From Escherichia phage ALITA: a stretch of DNA of 64,000 nt. The stretch lies in the sequence record PP359570; one strand, given 5' to 3'. Shown here piece after piece: positions 5,606 to 46,720 of this stretch; positions within the stretch are counted from its first letter, which is position 1; the number at the start of each line of letters is the position of its first letter. The notes under the pieces were generated by a model. That model did no database searches. It was not told where the DNA came from and saw only the letters and a program-made list of their open reading frames with translations. A program made the translations under genes and the position numbers.

Positions 5606-5647
5606 ATTAATTGCATAGCATGAGTATTTCTCATTGGTTAAAAGGAG

Positions 5648-6013
5648 ATGCAAGTGAATTGTGAACATTGTGGTAGTGAGTTTACTTTGATAAAAGGTCA
5701 TGGTGGACAAAACAGATCATACTGTTACACTTGTATTCCAGAAGGTTTAGATAAACAAGTACGCACAAGATTACATCAAGAACTTAGAAGAGAGCGATCT
5801 CATAAGATGAAACTTGATTTAGGTTGCAAAGTGTGTGGTTATGCTAAATGTGCAGTAGCACTAGAATGGCATCACCCAGAGGACGATAAGAAACACGATC
5901 CATCTAATGCAATCAAAAGATCTTGGTCTGCTTACTTAGAAGAGACTGAAAAGTGTATCTTACTATGTGCCAATTGTCATAGAGAAGTACATGCTGGTCT
6001 TATACAGGTTTAA
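5648..6013 (+). CDS. HNH homing endonuclease (free-standing, inside tRNA array)
   Basis: 121-aa ORF; CxxC...CxxC zinc-binding pairs and HNH motif WHHPEDDKKHDP...LLCANCHREVH; alternative start GTG 5654 has better SD spacing. Confidence 0.85.
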   Translation: MQVNCEHCGSEFTLIKGHGGQNRSYCYTCIPEGLDKQVRTRLHQELRRERSHKMKLDLGCKVCGYAKCAVALEWHHPEDDKKHDPSNAIKRSWSAYLEETEKCILLCANCHREVHAGLIQV

Positions 6014-6014
6014 T

Positions 6015-29701: not shown

Positions 29702-31861
29702 ATGAAACAGGCTATTTTTACTGTAACTCGAAATACGAGAGTAAATGCCAGTTCATTCAGCTATAAGACCGTCGATGGAACGGCGGTCGCTGGTAGAGAT
29801 TATGTAGCTAAACAGGGAACAGTAACGTTCCCTTCTGATGCAGATTCTGCTACTGTAGTGGTTGATGTATATGAACGTCCGGCAAACTCTTTAGATCTTT
29901 ATTTTACTCTTGAGATTACTAGCATAAGTCAAAATAACATGATGATCAACGAAGAAATTCGTTGTGTTATTACGACTGATCAATCGAATACAACCCCACT
30001 AACTTGGCCTGTTGTGAAGTCTAGAATGTTTGATCCTAAGTTTTGGACAATAGATTCTCAAGCAACAGAGAGTTGTTCTATTATCTCTAATGGTGATTCT
30101 TTCACAGCAAGAATGGTTAATAGGACAGTGGCTGGTCTTGCTGGGATTATTTGGTCAACTTACGATAAATATGATCACAAAGGATTAGGCTACCAAGAAC
30201 ATTCTGACTTAAGTAAAGAAAAACTTTGGTTTAAAATGGAACTTAGTCAAGGTGTTCCTGGATTAAAAGAAGAAAAATTAATACCATCCTTAACAGTGAC
30301 ACTGAAGGATGAAACAGTTCATTATGTATCTCTAAACTTTTATGCAGAAGAAGTTTCAGAAGATGGTAAGACAGCAACAATCAAACTAGATTTCTCAAAT
30401 TTAAAATCTGGGCCAGAAAATGATATTGTTGTTGACACTACACAGATAGATAATATGTTCTTCTCCTTGATCTCCACAAGGTATCAAGAAATTGAAGATA
30501 TTATTCCTGTAGACAATGTGGATCTTTCCTTTAAGTTTACCATACTAGAGCCTGATACTGGTTACAGTATGATGAATATGGGTAATTTAAATGTTCCGGC
30601 GCACACCATAAGAATGTGTACATCTTATGATGATATGTATAACCTAACCCCAGAGCGAGTTATTTCTAACACCTATAGATTAGGTTATAGAGATATGATT
30701 AACCATTATAATGGTATGTCACACTATTATCAATTCAGTTGGGATGCTGGATCTAATAAATGGGCTTTGAATAGAACAGAATATTTAAACCCAGCAACAG
30801 AAGCCTGGTTTGATAATTTCCACGCTAATGCAAAAGCTATGGGCTACACAGTAATGAACTCCTTAAGTTTTGAACTTATGAGTACAGTGTGTCCTGTAGA
30901 ATGGGTACAACATACTTGGAATGATGATCTGGCTGCTACAGGTTATGAGCCACCAAGTTATGTTTTATCTCCTTCAATTGATGAAGGGATGAATTATTTA
31001 CAAGGTGTAATAAATAAGATAGCTTCTATATCCGCTGCCAATGATCTTCCTGTTATTATTCAGGTTGGTGAACCGTGGTGGTGGTATAACACAGCTACCA
31101 ATCTCCCGTGTATTTATGATTATGCAACCAAAGTTGCATTTAATAATGAAACTGGATTATATGCACAAGATGTTGGTACAGTTAAGAATTATAAAACTGG
31201 TACACCATATGATGAATATTATGCATTCCTATCTAAAACATTAGGACTGCGTGTTGCTAAATTTGCAACAGATACTAGATTAGCATATCCTGGAGCAAAA
31301 GTTACATTGTTACCATTTGTGCCATCCATCTTAGGTAACGGTATGATGGAGTTTGTTAACTTCCCTAAAGATCATTATATCCCAGAAAACTTTGACTTTT
31401 ATTGTTCAGAATGTTATGACTGGTTGTTGGAAGGTCAGATGGAAAGATCTTTCGACGCTATCACAATACCTAATGAGCAACTAGGTTTTAGTTATGATAA
31501 GATACATTATCTTGCAGGGTTTGTTCCAGATGCAACTCTAGCACCATTATATGGCTTTGATCCTGAATCAGACTACAGAACATATTTGTGGAAAATGATT
31601 ATAGGTAATATTGTATTGAATGACCAGAAGTTTGTTGGTTTGTATCAATACATATGGGCTTATCCACAAATTATGGCAGATTCATTAACTGTTCTTAATT
31701 CAAAATCCCAAGTTTTTTATATGGGTAATGTGCCTTTGAATTGCTATTTGCAAGATATCACTCTTAAACAGGTAAATGTTGAGATTGCCACCATAGGTGG
31801 AATTACATTAGCCACTAAATCTGGAGAAGATTTAGTAACAACACAAAAATTTTATATATAG
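29702..31861 (+). CDS. large tail-fibre/baseplate structural protein (719 aa)
   Basis: Long ORF with SD. Confidence 0.5.
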   Translation: MKQAIFTVTRNTRVNASSFSYKTVDGTAVAGRDYVAKQGTVTFPSDADSATVVVDVYERPANSLDLYFTLEITSISQNNMMINEEIRCVITTDQSNTTPLTWPVVKSRMFDPKFWTIDSQATESCSIISNGDSFTARMVNRTVAGLAGIIWSTYDKYDHKGLGYQEHSDLSKEKLWFKMELSQGVPGLKEEKLIPSLTVTLKDETVHYVSLNFYAEEVSEDGKTATIKLDFSNLKSGPENDIVVDTTQIDNMFFSLISTRYQEIEDIIPVDNVDLSFKFTILEPDTGYSMMNMGNLNVPAHTIRMCTSYDDMYNLTPERVISNTYRLGYRDMINHYNGMSHYYQFSWDAGSNKWALNRTEYLNPATEAWFDNFHANAKAMGYTVMNSLSFELMSTVCPVEWVQHTWNDDLAATGYEPPSYVLSPSIDEGMNYLQGVINKIASISAANDLPVIIQVGEPWWWYNTATNLPCIYDYATKVAFNNETGLYAQDVGTVKNYKTGTPYDEYYAFLSKTLGLRVAKFATDTRLAYPGAKVTLLPFVPSILGNGMMEFVNFPKDHYIPENFDFYCSECYDWLLEGQMERSFDAITIPNEQLGFSYDKIHYLAGFVPDATLAPLYGFDPESDYRTYLWKMIIGNIVLNDQKFVGLYQYIWAYPQIMADSLTVLNSKSQVFYMGNVPLNCYLQDITLKQVNVEIATIGGITLATKSGEDLVTTQKFYI

Positions 31862-31869
31862 GAGTAAAA

Positions 31870-33726
31870 ATGTCAACTACAATTACTAATTTACCCGAAA
31901 CATCAAAAGTTAATGGTTCAGATTACCTGGTTTTAGATCAATCTGATAAAACTGTTAAAAGCACAGTTTCCAACTTTCTTACTGACACTGGGGTGGTTTT
32001 AGCCACCCAGTTGAAAGATACAGATGGAGCAGAGTTAATAGGACATAGAAACGCTACGGTTGGCACTACTCTGGATTCAATTGCAGTCCGCTCAGATCAA
32101 TTTTCTACTATTCAGGAATGGGCATCATACCCAGCAAAGCACAAAACTTTAGCAGGCGGAACATATACTCTGGACTCTACTCTCAGTGTTGAATGTGAAT
32201 CACTGACCACTGAGGGTGTAGTTACTATAAATGCTTCTGGTTCATTCATCGCTATGTATTTTGGTACAAATCAGCGAGATTTACTAACCACTCTTAGCTC
32301 TGATATTTCAAAAGGGATAACCAGTCTTACTGTCGATAATGTTCAGGAAGGAGATACTTTATGCTTTTATAATCCTTCTGATTTTTCATGGTCTGGATAC
32401 CGGAATTATTATCGTAGTGGAGAGTTTGTTAAGGTTGTTAGATATTCAAATGGGATTGCACACTTCAATGGAGGGACGAAAGCCGCATACCCATCTGGGA
32501 CTCAAGTTTACAAGCTAAAAACAAAAAAAGTTTCTGTAAGCGGGGCTTTTGTATTTAATTTTCCTTCATACGACAAAACTGCTATGGCTATGCAATTCGA
32601 GCAGATAGCTGATGGTAACTTTGACAATCTCGTTGTCACATCTCACACCGCCCCTTATGCCGTTCAGTTTAAACGTTGTTTCAATCTTACCGGTAAGGGG
32701 ATGCGTCTCACACAGGAATCTCCTTCTGTAAGTTTTGGCTTAGAATATGGTTGCTACATCTGCAATAGCCAGAATATTGATTTTGAAGGTATATTCTGTG
32801 CAGAGCGCCATGCAGTCACTGTTACAGGTAATGATGAAATCTGCGGTATTGTTAACAGATTTGTCAGTGTTAACGCCAGCGGTGGCGGTGCAATCATGAC
32901 CACAGGGCAAGGCAAGGTTGCAGCAGCAGACTGGCACGGAAACACTGAAAAGTGCAGGTATGGTGGATATATTCAAGGGCTTGCTTGTGGTGGGTCTAAA
33001 AATAGCGCACGTGGTGCTCATATCGACCACGTACCTAACACCCCGGCATGGCCTAACATACTCGCTACGGAACTTAAGTCAATTGAGTTTGATTTAAGCA
33101 ATATCCATGTTACAGGGATAGGTGATCCATCTTCAGTAAACAGAGGTTGTATTGATTTTGGAGGTAACTCCACTGCATTTGGAGCTAATACTGTAGAACC
33201 TGGCACTTTGAATCTTTCTGGGGCTGTTATTGATTCTCCCGCAAACGTGTTGATTGAGATAAGGAACAGGGGTTCATTGGCTGCTCACACCATAAATCTT
33301 AATGGAGTTACCGCTAATGCAGAGAGCGGTAAGTACACGGTCAGGATTGCGCCAATTGGAGAAGGTATTTCCCCTTCAGATGTTTACATGGCAGGATTTA
33401 AGATGCCTGACGGCAGTATCTCACAGATAAATAACCTGTCATCAGTGAACGTACACGGGGTGTCCAAAAAAGGTAGATCTTCTATAACCATACCAAGTGG
33501 GGCCAGTTCTGCGGAGTTAACCATCCCTTTCGATTCCACTGTACTTGGTGCTCCGAAATCAGTTCAGTTTAATCGGTCAGGGCTTGTTCCAGCGGCACAA
33601 GCAAGGATTGTATTCTCTGAACGAACTTCGTCACCAACAGGGTTTCGGGTTATCGCGGCAACAGCTAACGGTAATACGCTCTCAGCAGACCTTACTATAC
33701 CGTTCTCATGGCGTGCAGATTGGTAA
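31870..33726 (+). CDS. tailspike-like protein (618 aa)
   Basis: Long ORF with SD; Gly/Ser/Thr-rich beta-type composition. Confidence 0.45.
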   Translation: MSTTITNLPETSKVNGSDYLVLDQSDKTVKSTVSNFLTDTGVVLATQLKDTDGAELIGHRNATVGTTLDSIAVRSDQFSTIQEWASYPAKHKTLAGGTYTLDSTLSVECESLTTEGVVTINASGSFIAMYFGTNQRDLLTTLSSDISKGITSLTVDNVQEGDTLCFYNPSDFSWSGYRNYYRSGEFVKVVRYSNGIAHFNGGTKAAYPSGTQVYKLKTKKVSVSGAFVFNFPSYDKTAMAMQFEQIADGNFDNLVVTSHTAPYAVQFKRCFNLTGKGMRLTQESPSVSFGLEYGCYICNSQNIDFEGIFCAERHAVTVTGNDEICGIVNRFVSVNASGGGAIMTTGQGKVAAADWHGNTEKCRYGGYIQGLACGGSKNSARGAHIDHVPNTPAWPNILATELKSIEFDLSNIHVTGIGDPSSVNRGCIDFGGNSTAFGANTVEPGTLNLSGAVIDSPANVLIEIRNRGSLAAHTINLNGVTANAESGKYTVRIAPIGEGISPSDVYMAGFKMPDGSISQINNLSSVNVHGVSKKGRSSITIPSGASSAELTIPFDSTVLGAPKSVQFNRSGLVPAAQARIVFSERTSSPTGFRVIAATANGNTLSADLTIPFSWRADW

Positions 33727-33827
33727 ATATTTATACTAAAAACTAAGACCCCAAACTATGCCTTTATTTATACATATAAAGTTTATTGTTTGTACTACCC
33801 CCATAGGATAGTGGGTGTTATGTCTAG

Positions 33828-34019
33828 ATGTCTTTCAACATACTAAGTATTATCTATGATAAGGAGACGCAAAGGGCGTATTCCCTACCTGCTGATATTG
33901 CCCCAGGTATTACTGCCATTAGTCTTAGTGCTGCTGTACTTGTGCATTCAGCGGGTTCTGTAGACCTTGGGGAATTAGCTGTATATCGTGATTTAAAAAG
34001 TAATGAGAACGCACCATGA
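33828..34019 (+). CDS. hypothetical small protein
   Basis: 63-aa ORF, weak SD. Confidence 0.3.
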   Translation: MSFNILSIIYDKETQRAYSLPADIAPGITAISLSAAVLVHSAGSVDLGELAVYRDLKSNENAP

Positions 34020-42734: not shown

Positions 42735-42745
42735 AAGGAGATTAA

Positions 42746-44905
42746 ATGTATCCTATTCCTTTATTTATGTCAACAACATCAGCTTCAGTAGTAACAGCTA
42801 CATCTATAACTACTTCCTCTATTGGTATTGCAATAGTTGGTGGTAAAAAACAACTGACATACACAGTTACACCCGAAGATGGTGCGTTATTTGATATAGC
42901 TTTTTCATCTTCAGATGATACCAAAATGGTTATAGATAATAGTGGTATGATGGAGTTTGTTGCCGAAGGTGGTTTTGATGCAATAATGACAGCTAAAAAT
43001 AATTTAGGTGCTGTCTTAACTGATCAATCTGGTGGTTATGCTTCAGAATTAAGTGTGTACACTGAAAGTCTATCGGCTATGGATGTAGGCACTACTCAAC
43101 AGTTGGTTGCTACAATCAGTCCAGAAGGTGCTAAAGACCTTCCAGATATGGTAATTACATACACCACAACAGATCCAGAAGTAGCTACTGTAAGCCCTAC
43201 AGGGTTAATAACTGCTCTTAAAGATGGCGGTTGCCGTATAGGTTGTACTGCAACGTATCAAGGAACAGTTGTGGCCTCTGATAGTTCTTATTTAGGTGTT
43301 AATGCTATTCCTGTTATTTCTAATGTAACAGCCGTGGCAAACAGCTATGGAGACGTTCGTGTTGCTTGGGATGTAGCTGATCCGCTAGACGGTGATACTT
43401 ATACTGTAGAAGTATTAGATTTAAGTAATAATAGTGTTCAGTGGACTACAACAACCACGAATACTTACGCCTACTTTGATATCTCTGACTCTATTCCTCT
43501 TTATGGGTTTGCTCCAACATACCTTAAAATTAGCGTTAAGAGCACCAAAGCAGCAGCCGTTATCTTTAATAACTCAATAGCTACAGATGATTCGTTCATT
43601 AAAGAAGTTATTGTCTTTGCTGGACAAGATAACGTAAATGCACACTTTACAGAACTATCTGGTGCAAATAAAGCAGCAATGGGTAGCACAACAGCCCGTA
43701 ATGCATATGCTACGCAACGTGGTTTAGCAAATGCTGAAGTTCTTCCGTTAAATACAGCTTCTGGATCATCAGCAGCAGATAAATATGCTGACGATAAAGC
43801 TGGAACAGGTACACCAGATAACTACTGGTATGATTTGGATAACACAGCAGATGGGCCATGCTTAACTAACTTTATCACTAAAGTCACACCTTATGCAAGT
43901 AAGGTTAAAGCAATTATTTGGGGACAAGGTGAAAATGATGCTGTATCAGCATCTTCGACTGTTGCAGGTAGGTACAGTAACACTACACGTTACCATGATG
44001 CTACGATAGCTATCTTTGATAAGATGCGTACAATAGTTCCTGCTTCTCAAGCAAAAATTGTTTGGCAGATCCTAGGACGTTCTTATTTATATGGTGTAGA
44101 AGTTAATGGTGTGGATTGGCAGAAGTACAGAAATGTACAAAGAACCATCTCTACAGCACGTGATGATGTTATCATTGGTTCTTGGGTAGATGGTGCTGAA
44201 CGTTACAGTGGTTATGTTTATGAAGAAGGTATTGATGGTCGTATCCATTATGTTTCTTCTGTATACCAAACAGCAGCTACAAAACTTGCTAAATCAGCAG
44301 CAGACGGTACAGACTTAACATCAACGTCACCTGTTTGGGTTGATATGGCTGTTCCAACTGGAGCAACAGCTACTTCCCAACCTAATCAAGATACAATTTT
44401 AGCATGGGATGCTCAAGGCTATAGTAAACACTACTTCCGTAATATTAACGTCTTAACCGCATCTGTATTAACTGAACAAACGCTTAATACGAACAGTTAT
44501 ACGTTTACCTATGCAGATCAAGTAGAACAATATGGTTTTGCAGCAGGAACTACTATATTTGATGTTGCATATTATGACGAAGCAAATGATGTGTTATCTC
44601 CTTTAGTACGTTTTAATGTTAACGTTACAGCAGGAACCGTAGAAGATAAACCTGTCGTGATGGACTATGATTTGACGCAAGAAACTCTTCCATCAGATGT
44701 TAAGGTTAATGGTGGGAACTCTTTTGCTCGTGCTTCTGGAGATATACTTGTAGCCACTAACACCTTGGTTGCTCCGTTGGAGTATGTTGGTAATACCCCT
44801 GTAGGTAGACGTGTAACAGCTAACACAGCTTCACAAATTTTTGTCAACAACGCCTTAACAAGTGCAAGCCCGTGGGTAAAGACCAACTTAACTGTTGCAG
44901 CTTAA
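42746..44905 (+). CDS. tail fibre / tailspike with SASA-type (SGNH-like) carbohydrate esterase domain
   Basis: 719-aa ORF; esterase-like motifs VIVFAGQDNVNAHF and KAIIWGQGENDA in the central region; Ig-like N-terminal region. Confidence 0.5.
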   Translation: MYPIPLFMSTTSASVVTATSITTSSIGIAIVGGKKQLTYTVTPEDGALFDIAFSSSDDTKMVIDNSGMMEFVAEGGFDAIMTAKNNLGAVLTDQSGGYASELSVYTESLSAMDVGTTQQLVATISPEGAKDLPDMVITYTTTDPEVATVSPTGLITALKDGGCRIGCTATYQGTVVASDSSYLGVNAIPVISNVTAVANSYGDVRVAWDVADPLDGDTYTVEVLDLSNNSVQWTTTTTNTYAYFDISDSIPLYGFAPTYLKISVKSTKAAAVIFNNSIATDDSFIKEVIVFAGQDNVNAHFTELSGANKAAMGSTTARNAYATQRGLANAEVLPLNTASGSSAADKYADDKAGTGTPDNYWYDLDNTADGPCLTNFITKVTPYASKVKAIIWGQGENDAVSASSTVAGRYSNTTRYHDATIAIFDKMRTIVPASQAKIVWQILGRSYLYGVEVNGVDWQKYRNVQRTISTARDDVIIGSWVDGAERYSGYVYEEGIDGRIHYVSSVYQTAATKLAKSAADGTDLTSTSPVWVDMAVPTGATATSQPNQDTILAWDAQGYSKHYFRNINVLTASVLTEQTLNTNSYTFTYADQVEQYGFAAGTTIFDVAYYDEANDVLSPLVRFNVNVTAGTVEDKPVVMDYDLTQETLPSDVKVNGGNSFARASGDILVATNTLVAPLEYVGNTPVGRRVTANTASQIFVNNALTSASPWVKTNLTVAA

Positions 44906-45046
44906 TCTGATAAATCTCCGGCTGGAACTACTGCCAATGTATTCAAATTAACTCCGACTACAACCTCTGGTAGTCATATCTTAACTGCAACATATACTAA
45001 CGCGTACAACATATCTGCCGGACGTAACTGGTCTGCCTCTGTTTTC

Positions 45047-45565
45047 TTGAAAGCGAACGGGATCACTAAGGCCAAACTAAGATTAAAAGCAGGAACTGAA
45101 GTTAATGAGGGTACTTTTGATTTAGCAGCAGGTACATTCACAGGAAGTGAAGCTAATATTATATCTATGGGCAACGGTTGGTATCGTGCTATTCTGCATA
45201 AAACAGGGATAGCCAAACAGTCCTCCATAAGTTTTGAAATAATTGCCTTGGATGCAACTGGTGCGGAGATTTTCGCTGGAGATGGTACTAGTAACCTTGC
45301 AGTTTGGTTGCCACAGCTTGAAGGTGCTTCTACAGGAGAAACATCAAAAGCTGGATCGCCTTATGTCTGCACATATCCTGGAAATTTAGGAGGAGTATCC
45401 TTCACTATACCAAGGAACGGACATACTGGTGTGGATGTTTACTATTCCAACGGAGACGTTGTTCGTGACGTATTCTCTGGTACGGCATCTACTTGGACAA
45501 TAAACTACTCCAGCTTGTACGATTGGGGATCAGTCTTTATTACAGGTTTGAAATATTACGACTAA
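45047..45565 (+). CDS. ORF in the same frame as the upstream tail fibre gene, separated only by a TAA (possible read-through extension, C-terminal domain gene or pseudogenised 3' part)
   Basis: 44906-45046 contains 47 sense codons in frame with 42746..44905; first conventional start is TTG 45047 without SD. Confidence 0.3.
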   Translation: MKANGITKAKLRLKAGTEVNEGTFDLAAGTFTGSEANIISMGNGWYRAILHKTGIAKQSSISFEIIALDATGAEIFAGDGTSNLAVWLPQLEGASTGETSKAGSPYVCTYPGNLGGVSFTIPRNGHTGVDVYYSNGDVVRDVFSGTASTWTINYSSLYDWGSVFITGLKYYD

Positions 45566-45567
45566 TA

Positions 45568-45597
45568 AAAAAGGAGCCATTAGGCTCCTTTTCTTTT
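45568..45597. terminator. bidirectional rho-independent terminator between convergent gene blocks
   Basis: AAGGAGCC-ATTA-GGCTCCTT hairpin flanked by AAAAA upstream and TTCTTTT downstream. Confidence 0.65.
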
Positions 45598-45600
45598 ATC

Positions 45601-46032
45601 TTAGTCAGTGAAAATTACGCTTACATCTTCTTTAGAAAAGAGTTTATGATCTTCACCTTTTGTCTCAAGAGTTTCATACAGATTAAGAAGTTCTGAAACA
45701 TCTTTCTCTACCAGTTTCTTCAATGTTGCAATTTTCTGTTTGCGACTCTTAATACGTTCAGCTACAACCTTACGCTGGTATCCGGCAGTACGATAACCTG
45801 AGAAAGTTACACCAGTAAGGCTTGCAGTCACAGGATCGTAGTGACGTTCAATCTGAAACTTATTAAAAGGTACAGCGTCATCACGAATAATCTTACCGCC
45901 ATTACTTACCTGACGAAGACCAGTAACTTGCTCCAGTCGTGCCATAGAAATCTTTGGAGACAGACCAGAGTCCAGGTTCATACCATTGTTAATCAGTGCT
46001 TTCAGGGTGATTTTGCTGTTCAGTGTACTCAT
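45601..46032 (-). CDS. hypothetical protein
   Basis: 143-aa ORF; 5' end overlaps methyltransferase gene 3' end by 44 nt. Confidence 0.45.
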   Translation of the reverse strand: MSTLNSKITLKALINNGMNLDSGLSPKISMARLEQVTGLRQVSNGGKIIRDDAVPFNKFQIERHYDPVTASLTGVTFSGYRTAGYQRKVVAERIKSRKQKIATLKKLVEKDVSELLNLYETLETKGEDHKLFSKEDVSVIFTD

Positions 46033-46720
46033 TTAGTCGTTCCTCCGCTTGCTTAAAAATATTTACATCGGCTTCACAGCCTAAGTATTCTCTACCTGTT
46101 AAAAGTGCCGCAACTTGTGTTGTTGCACTTCCAGAGAAGAAGTCTAAGACTACATCTCCTTCGTTGGTGTGTATATTAATAAGGTCACAAAACAAAGTCA
46201 AGTGTTTTTGTGTTGGATGAAAACGATCTGCTCCTTGATAGATAGGATACTCAAACACACCCTTATGGTAGGAAGCATTGAAGGTTGGCTTCGAACCTTT
46301 AACACAAACAATAGCCATCTCTTTAGCGTTACTAAGGTAGTTAACACCACTGTTGATGGGTACAGGGTTTGTTTTAATCCATTCGATAGTACGGAACATA
46401 CGAAAACCAAGCGGTTCAAGGATTTCACGTAGCTCCTGGATCTTCCAGATATCATACCAAACTATGCAAGTACCACCTTTTCTAAGCACCCTGTAGGCTT
46501 CTTTGAATACTTCTTTAAAGTAAGGAATATCTACAACATCCCAATCACCGAAGTTGTAAGATACACGGAATCTATCCGTATCTTTTCCAGTCGGCTCTCC
46601 AGATTGAAAATTTGTGTCACGAGAAATAGCATATGGTGGGTCAGTAAGAATCAAATCTACACTATTGCTTTCGAGGGTTTGCAGGTAGTTTAATGCGGTG
46701 TTGTTTACAAATTCGCTCAT
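45989..46720 (-). CDS. DNA methyltransferase, beta class (N6-adenine or N4-cytosine)
   Basis: 243-aa ORF; DPPY motif (LILTDPPYAI) near N-terminus and AdoMet-binding FFSGSATT near C-terminus; SD aaggag. Confidence 0.85.
   Translation of the reverse strand: MSEFVNNTALNYLQTLESNSVDLILTDPPYAISRDTNFQSGEPTGKDTDRFRVSYNFGDWDVVDIPYFKEVFKEAYRVLRKGGTCIVWYDIWKIQELREILEPLGFRMFRTIEWIKTNPVPINSGVNYLSNAKEMAIVCVKGSKPTFNASYHKGVFEYPIYQGADRFHPTQKHLTLFCDLINIHTNEGDVVLDFFSGSATTQVAALLTGREYLGCEADVNIFKQAEERLNEYTEQQNHPESTD

Follow-up and report, generated by a model that had tools for sequence, protein, structure and literature searches.

A single in-frame TAA probably truncates the lateral tail-fibre gene of Escherichia phage ALITA ahead of most of its putative receptor-binding tip

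The head spike fibre Rcc01080 of the Rhodobacter capsulatus gene transfer agent (RcGTA) binds capsular polysaccharide (PMC10218006), and the function of a related module, the C-terminal appendage of the Shigella phage Sf11 distal tail protein gp17, has been stated as unknown (PMC12724387). In phi92, the type phage of the genus Justusliebigvirus, the tail-fibre gene considered here is split into two annotated ORFs, gp152 and gp153, the second carrying the remark 'no RBS identified; weak prodigal statistics'. Escherichia phage ALITA is a phi92-like Justusliebigvirus for which a literature search found no relevant paper. We analysed a stretch of 64,000 nucleotides of its genome (sequence record PP359570), hereafter the window, in which the corresponding fibre gene is also presented as two ORFs.

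The fibre gene lies on the + strand and is preceded by an AAGGAG Shine-Dalgarno sequence at 42735..42740 (upstream sequence TTATTGTTTAAGGAGATTAA, then the ATG). The ATG ORF 42746..44905 comprises 719 codons and ends with TAA at 44903-44905, after which 47 stop-free codons (44906-45046) lead in frame into an ORF of 172 amino acids at 45047..45565 that starts with TTG. Altogether 219 codons are open downstream of the TAA, up to a double stop, TAA TAA, at 45566-45571; the coordinates and counts of the original prediction were exact. GenBank lists two proteins at this locus, WWP17711.1 (719 aa) and WWP17712.1 (172 aa, 'tail protein'). Stops occur at 0.059 per codon in the window when all three + strand frames are pooled, which gives 219 open codons a probability of about 2e-6; the open run is therefore not due to chance. 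The remaining long in-frame extensions in the window are neighbouring genes sharing a frame by coincidence; each of the three such cases on the + strand continues into a listed ORF that has an ATG of its own. The proportion of Gly, Thr and Ser is somewhat higher in the 219-codon extension than in the upstream part (34% versus 27%), as had been pointed out. An intrinsic terminator hairpin at 45569..45592 closes the fibre transcription unit and separates it from the convergent gene 45601..46032 on the opposite strand; in the related phage Paula, terminators are annotated there on both strands. No strong terminator-like site comparable to this hairpin, which has a 10-pair stem, was found after the TAA ending at 44905.

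The TAA is not conserved: each of the 12 related sequences examined that extend over this region of the gene encodes serine at codon 720 (TCA in eleven, TCG in one). Ten related phage records have a single uninterrupted CDS of 933-942 amino acids in place of the two ALITA ORFs. In inny, Paula, alia, KMB37, PaulScherrer, phiWec187, JLBYU50 and PHB05 this is one collinear CDS of 2,820 nt, and codon 720 read directly in these equal-length relatives is TCA in seven and TCG in KMB37. Two diverged alleles, from EmilieFrey and 92CQ, also encode Ser at this point, and in EmilieFrey the homologous codon itself was read as TCA. A metagenome contig likewise shows TCA at codon 720. The orthologs inny_122 (QHR69792.1), Paula_0165, bas60_0037 of PaulScherrer and that of KMB37 occupy the same locus, between a collagen-like fibre gene and a convergent methyltransferase operon, and show 97.5-99.4% nucleotide identity over 2,820 nt in the same frame; unlike the ALITA gene they are uninterrupted, with a sense codon where ALITA has TAA. 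The closest sequence, Logan contig ERR15284730_1306, is 99.93% identical to the window over 9,962 nt, and within the 2,820-nt gene it differs at two positions only, 44904, where it has C (codon TCA), and 45560. At the protein level, the 219-codon extension and the C-terminal ends of the PHB05, W22 and EC.P2 genes are 100% identical. Thus the sense codon of the orthologs is one base away from the ALITA stop (TCA to TAA at 44904), and past the stop the ALITA sequence still follows the orthologs without a shift of frame.

Taken with this gapless collinearity, we consider it probable that the two ORFs are one lateral tail-fibre gene of 939 codons, 42746..45565, in which a single C-to-A transversion at 44904 turned Ser720 into an ochre codon. 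Since all relatives examined read Ser at codon 720, the break would be an ordinary truncation or a base-call error, and not a read-through site or a hidden gene. The original prediction had left a nonsense mutation removing the distal tip, programmed read-through and a non-canonically initiated gene open; the first is the one that the relatives' continuous gene bears out.

The part lost beyond the stop is a recognizable domain. PHROG 32204 covers residues 1-628 of the fibre, and PHROG 11922 is matched consecutively across the stop, the upstream ORF aligning to its positions 382-650 and the extension to 653-870. A profile of the C-terminal module hit 6tb9, the head spike fibre of RcGTA (E 5e-50), 9occ, the C-terminal appendage of Sf11 gp17 (2e-29), and E217 gp45 / Pa193 gp46 (about 1e-17). 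An AlphaFold model of the homolog P0046, 81% identical, was used as a proxy for the ALITA module; its residues ~262-420 form a jelly roll in which the mean pLDDT exceeds 70 in nearly every block of 10 residues and reaches 96. Over the whole model the mean is 52, the jelly roll being the only confident part, unlike the last ~75 residues and the N-terminal part. Foldseek matches of the jelly roll were phage baseplate proteins and several carbohydrate-binding modules. From model, profile and Foldseek matches, the predicted tip domain is a jelly roll resembling carbohydrate-binding modules at about residues 705-863 (44858..45334, + strand), with the conserved motifs SPxGTT, GNGWYR and AGDGTS, and it falls in the class of the RcGTA head spike fibre as a putative receptor-binding domain. 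The stop is placed by the P0046 model directly after strand 2 of this jelly roll. The 719-codon ORF comprises Big_2 Ig-like domains, an SGNH/SASA-like domain and the first two tip strands, and the 219-codon remnant (44906..45565) corresponds by homology to the remaining jelly roll and a small C-terminal domain.

A receptor-binding or a chaperone domain had been proposed for the downstream part. Homology favours the former, and binding of a surface glycan by the tip may be expected by analogy with its capsule-binding RcGTA homolog. Peptidase_S74 is the C-terminal chaperone domain of phage endosialidases; the 219-aa extension matches no Pfam family at E <= 0.1, so there is no match to that domain and the chaperone proposal falls away. 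Pfam Laminin_G_3 is present in one distant homolog of the tip module.

The alternative that survives best is that the deposited A at 44904 is wrong and that the phage has TCA and an intact 939-aa fibre; we regard this as unlikely while granting it some weight. The TAA allele is unique to the ALITA record among the phage collection, Logan/ENA and the metagenome matches: the 71-nt stretch spanning the stop has no 100% match among the records of the phage collection, no IMG/VR viral contig matched the exact pattern around the stop when scanned, and the exact 719-aa protein, known only from the NCBI record, is in no Logan or ENA assembly, so that the A is without independent confirmation. The undamaged state of the 219 codons, whose protein is identical to that of intact relatives, would also be expected under an error. 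Against this, when 47 CDSs of inny (about 43 kb coding) were compared with the window, the fibre gene was the only one with an internal stop, a single one at codon 720, and no frameshift-type disruption was found; therefore the assembly is not generally error-prone, and with no other broken gene a generally error-ridden assembly was ruled out. The change is moreover a substitution outside any homopolymer run, with no GATC or CCWGG motif nearby, and substitution errors of such a kind are rare in well-covered consensus assemblies. Genuine disruptions of the same fibre gene in phi92 and in a 687-aa allele also speak against an error. We infer that the A is real in the phage stock and that the lesion is an ordinary, recent truncating mutation, a base-call error being less likely.

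These other damaged or shortened forms of the gene differ from that of ALITA in the nature of the lesion. The phi92 gene has an out-of-frame deletion of ~224 nt in the N-terminal third of a 628-aa allele, and not a point nonsense mutation. The 687-aa allele (P0025), found on contigs of up to 145.7 kb, departs from the full-length protein at about residue 686 (...GNTPCR versus ...GNTPVGRR...), a divergence consistent in sequence with a frameshift. The 628-aa allele of muut (muut_214), arall (arall_18), Eryne and VEcB is 94-95% identical over residues 1-628 and cleanly lacks the C-terminal cassette of the 939-aa allele (residues 629-939, 44630..45565, + strand), its terminator following directly after the stop, whereas ALITA retains the cassette DNA. 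In muut the last codons are ...GTT ACA TAA, and the terminator behind them is the one that also closes the ALITA fibre gene; in an ENA contig the 628-aa allele stands beside an identical upstream fibre gene. Since this allele stops just before the cassette, a tip-less fibre occurs in nature.

The phi92 deletion, the 687-aa allele and the 628-aa allele argue that this fibre gene is expendable and often damaged, and together the broken phi92 ortholog and the 628-aa allele suggest that on some hosts the phage can do without this fibre or without its tip. A stronger reading, in which the TAA is real and was selected and phi92-like phages grown on particular hosts repeatedly shed the tip of this accessory fibre, whether adaptively or neutrally, appears doubtful. 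If it held, ALITA, phi92 and the 687-aa and 628-aa alleles would be independent routes to a tip-less state, and loss of the tip might alter host range or cut unproductive binding.

It is very improbable that the downstream part is a gene of its own, with translation starting at TTG 45047 or at another non-canonical codon. GenBank does annotate the 172-aa protein, and a TTG is present at 45047, the first in-frame ATG, GTG or TTG past the stop. However, as had been noticed, this ORF has no ATG or GTG start and no Shine-Dalgarno sequence: no stretch within the 20 nt before the TTG (ACTGGTCTGCCTCTGTTTTC) is complementary to the anti-Shine-Dalgarno sequence, and the neighbouring genes mostly have AAGGAG-like sites. 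Six other in-frame starts are no better, none being gene-start-like; five have a complementary run of at most 5 nt, and TTG 45548, with a run of 6 nt, is only six codons from the gene end. The annotated relatives have one CDS each and no separate gene at this place. TTG 45047 is codon 768 of the full gene and corresponds to P0046 residue 325, inside the fifth beta-strand of the modelled jelly roll (E318-329), so that a product initiated there would miss the first four strands. The analogous phi92 leftover ORF, gp153, is itself flagged for its missing ribosome-binding site and weak gene-calling statistics. WWP17712.1 is most likely a gene-caller artefact.

Programmed read-through, in which occasional insertion of an amino acid at the TAA would yield fibres of two lengths from a single gene, is the least probable reading. 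The 219 open codons do encode a real domain, and a very low basal read-through is unavoidable. However, the TAA is missing from all relatives examined, including the 99.93%-identical contig, whereas a programmed signal would be conserved. UAA-U is reported to be the most efficient terminator in E. coli (Poole, Brown and Tate 1995), and TAA-T ends more of the long ORFs in the window than any other stop context (16 of 50). No anticodon reading UAA (UUA) occurs among the 15 tRNA genes of the window. A phage-encoded ochre suppressor among these 15 tRNAs was accordingly ruled out. Genome-wide reassignment of TAA was also rejected, TAA ending 44 of the 50 long ORFs in the window.

Under the preferred reading, a recent nonsense mutation, translation from ATG 42746 to the TAA would produce a 719-aa fibre that keeps residues 1-628 and 91 residues of the cassette, and that would be missing the small C-terminal domain together with nearly all of the jelly roll at the tip. 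Residues 1-628 would be able to stand alone, because the natural 628-aa allele is a complete gene product; compared with that allele, the ALITA product would bear the 91 residues as a stub. By analogy with the existence of the 628-aa allele, the truncated fibre may fold and assemble on the virion, and phages of this kind may tolerate loss of the tip since they have several receptor-binding proteins. The downstream 219 codons, 44906..45565, are probably untranslated and would represent a very young remnant, without further damage.

The practical consequence is a correction of the annotation: WWP17711.1 and WWP17712.1 are to be read as fragments of one fibre gene, and WWP17712.1 should not be regarded as a tail protein in its own right. 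For those using ALITA in host-range work or therapy, the sequence suggests that one of its several receptor-binding proteins is probably without its glycan-binding tip. No new translational mechanism is involved, and the finding is an ordinary one.

In relatives the gene product is labelled 'tail carbohydrate esterase', as in KMB37, or else 'lateral tail fiber protein'. Upstream of the cassette, Pfam SASA is matched at residues 374-436 only, with a score of 14.9 bits, below its curated cut-off of 24.8 (E 0.02). Fibre residues ~281-438 align with residues 432-592 of the phage N4 non-contractile tail sheath gp65 (PDB 9LC0 chain I; E 4.5e-11), with the common motifs FAG....HF and IIWGQG..DA; the homology is limited to one domain, and N4 gp65 has GESQ where ALITA-type proteins have GQDN. 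The Asp of GQDN aligns with the expected nucleophile Ser of GESQ; the catalytic serine of block I (GxSx / GQSN) was not found in the alleles examined, 14 of 14 having FAGQDN. Sequences similar to blocks III (WGQGEND) and V (DGRIH) do occur. At the C-terminal end, Rcc01080 (PDB 6TB9) is matched over its residues 20-278 and shares the motifs GNGWYR and GDG(T/A)SG, but it sits on the capsid vertex of a gene transfer agent, whereas the ALITA-type module belongs to a myovirus tail fibre. The jelly-roll homology is also shared by Sf11 gp17 (PDB 9OCC) and E217 gp45 / Pa193 gp46, in which the module is carried by a different protein, and with Sf11 gp17 it extends to the last small domain (...WGSxxIT..K).

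The ATG-started ORF 42746..44905 comprises 719 codons and ends at the TAA 44903-44905, past which the frame remains free of stops over 44906-45046 (47 codons), enters the listed TTG ORF 45047..45565 (172 aa) and is closed by TAA TAA at 45566-45571. By exact-sequence match, the products of the two ORFs are WWP17711.1 ('tail carbohydrate esterase') and WWP17712.1 ('tail protein') of the 147,398-bp ALITA genome; no paper on phage ALITA was found. With a stop frequency of 0.059 per codon, taken across the three plus-strand frames of the window, the chance of 219 open codons is p ~2e-6, and the extension is therefore coding sequence. The earliest in-frame start-type codon past the TAA is TTG 45047, where no Shine-Dalgarno sequence was seen, the neighbouring genes mostly having AAGGAG-like sites. 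The coordinates, codon counts, open frame and missing Shine-Dalgarno sequence of the original prediction were all confirmed. The tail protein family PHROG 11922 matched the 719-aa product at positions 382-650 and the 219-aa extension at 653-870, and the extension protein is 100% identical to the C-termini of the intact PHB05, W22 and EC.P2 genes. A strong terminator-like hairpin with a 10-pair stem (45569-45592) closes the fibre unit 3' of 45565, and none comparable follows the TAA at 44905. By these sequence features, the 719-aa and 172-aa ORFs belong to a single gene. The convergent genes 45601..46032 (143 aa, phi92 gp154-like) and 45989..46720 (N6/N4 DNA methyltransferase) lie on the minus strand, with a 44-nt overlap (45989-46032) likewise found in all relatives examined.

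The region is 97.5-99.4% identical to phi92-like Justusliebigvirus phages such as inny, Paula, alia, KMB37, PaulScherrer and PHB05. A single CDS, with no separate downstream gene, spans the whole stretch in all ten related phage records fetched; eight of these CDSs measure 2,820 nt (939 aa), while EmilieFrey's encodes 942 aa and that of 92CQ 933 aa. Base-by-base comparison with the equal-length relatives showed no indels. The stop is not conserved: codon 720 is TCA in seven equal-length relatives, TCG in KMB37 and TAA in the window, and serine also occupies the homologous codon of the diverged EmilieFrey/92CQ-type tip alleles, which share only ~60% protein identity with the ALITA extension. 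None of 50,697 phage records matched at 100% a 71-nt query with the stop at its centre. The most telling sequence comparison is that with the Logan metagenome contig ERR15284730_1306, found among contigs encoding a protein identical to ALITA's upstream fibre. Over 9,962 nt it matches the window at 99.93% identity (7 mismatches), and its 939-codon gene differs only at 44904 (contig C, window A) and 45560; in the metagenome collection, the codon is likewise TCA in the sole match to the exact flanks. The stop is therefore confined to ALITA and very young: one base change has turned the Ser720 codon TCA into the ochre codon TAA in an otherwise intact gene. Of the three options originally proposed, the right one was loss of the distal tip through a nonsense mutation, given the Ser codon in the intact orthologous gene. 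Elsewhere, the window carries an insertion of ~407 nt relative to inny (5608-6014) between tRNA-Gln and tRNA-Pro, which are 8 nt apart in inny; the sole match of its ORF 5648..6013 (121 aa) was a weak, below-threshold zinc-ribbon. The records 'Campylobacter phage A110a' and 'B15' (MG065689.1, MG065650.1; stated host Campylobacter jejuni) contain the fibre gene, with protein identities of 94% and 62%, and their genome sizes, typical of Justusliebigvirus and Phapecoctavirus, suggest mislabelled hosts or contaminating coliphages.

The TAA is probably a real ochre mutation. A base-call error at 44904 in the deposited sequence is considerably less likely. When 47 genes of inny, ~43 kb of coding sequence, were set against the window, this gene alone had a premature stop and none showed a frameshift-type disruption; the change is, moreover, a substitution at a site with no homopolymer run. 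The same fibre gene is also demonstrably damaged elsewhere. The ortholog of the type phage phi92 (FR775895.2 91320-92982) has an out-of-frame deletion of ~224 nt relative to a 628-aa allele and is annotated as gp152 (202 aa) and gp153 (295 aa), the latter with the remark 'no RBS identified; weak prodigal statistics'; a 687-aa allele, on contigs up to 145.7 kb, departs from the full-length sequence at about residue 686. K-12 strains are recognised through the N4 glycan receptor by phi92-like phages, which have a large complement of receptor-binding proteins (PMC11984140, PMC11990801, PMC8594841), so the loss of one accessory tip is plausibly tolerated.

As a proxy for the ALITA protein, the 81%-identical homolog P0046 was modelled with AlphaFold. 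The model is confident over a jelly-roll domain only (ALITA residues ~705-863), and its Foldseek matches were phage baseplate proteins and several carbohydrate-binding modules. Mapped on this model, the ALITA stop lies directly past the second beta-strand and TTG 45047 (codon 768) within the fifth. On this proxy, the tip of the 719-aa product is therefore reduced to a stub and the annotated 172-aa ORF could not form a self-standing domain. Against programmed read-through giving two fibre lengths stand the lack of the stop in all relatives examined and its TAA-T context, the most efficient terminator context in E. coli and the commonest ordinary one in the window (16 of 50 long ORFs; TAA, 44 of 50). 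The window's 15 tRNA genes include no ochre suppressor. The missing start signals, the single CDS in relatives and this domain geometry contradict a separate, non-canonical start for the downstream part.

The ALITA stop is nothing unusual: a known tail-fibre gene of phages has been truncated by a mutation specific to this strain, or possibly the sequence is in error. The practical result is a corrected annotation of the two fibre ORFs and caution regarding ALITA's receptor-binding repertoire. In the fibre's so-called 'carbohydrate esterase' domain, 14 of 14 alleles examined have FAGQDN as the motif resembling block I (residues 291-296, window 43616-43633). Sialate O-acetylesterases have GQSN at block I, and phage N4 gp65 aligns GESQ with FAGQDN; with Asp where the nucleophilic Ser is expected, the domain may be something other than a conventional esterase. 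Two domains of the phage N4 non-contractile tail sheath protein, the N-terminal one and the TIM barrel, are present in the 719-aa product of 29702..31861 (Pfam NCTSP_N and TIM-barrel_NCTSP, E 2e-81). It thus appears from sequence that parts of N4 gp65 are divided between this protein and the fibre 42746..45565; the N4 glycan receptor is used by both phage groups, which makes the split interesting. Window 31757-34016 has no counterpart in inny; it includes an additional tailspike gene, 31870..33726, whose 618-aa product has Gp49 pectate-lyase-like and TSP Ig-like domains. Gene 29702..31861, which precedes it, also diverges from inny_113 at its 3' end. This looks like an exchange of receptor-binding genes.

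The truncation falls in a C-terminal cassette of 311 residues (629-939, nt 44630-45565) that is cleanly present or absent between the window and relatives such as muut. The 628-aa allele of muut, arall, Eryne, VEcB and others of the genus lacks it, ending in VNVT and a stop with a terminator directly after. Both the 939-aa and 628-aa alleles adjoin identical upstream fibre genes, the short one beside ALITA's version on one ENA contig. Shorter Big_2 proteins of 436-496 aa (P0046-P0048) also carry the module in fusion, as does the distal tail protein of Kagunavirus/Sf11-like siphophages. A profile built from the cassette plus homologs was matched to solved structures: 6TB9 (E 5e-50), the head spike fibre Rcc01080 of the gene transfer agent of Rhodobacter capsulatus; 9OCC (E 2e-29), the C-terminal appendage of the Shigella phage Sf11 distal tail protein gp17, with an alignment extending fully to the C-terminus; and, at E ~1e-17, the baseplate proteins E217 gp45 and Pa193 gp46. 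The function of the Sf11 gp17 appendage is stated to be unknown (PMC12724387), and capsular polysaccharide is the ligand of the RcGTA head spike fibre (PMC10218006). By homology, the lost part is a putative glycan-binding, receptor-recognition module, in agreement with the receptor-binding nature first proposed for it.
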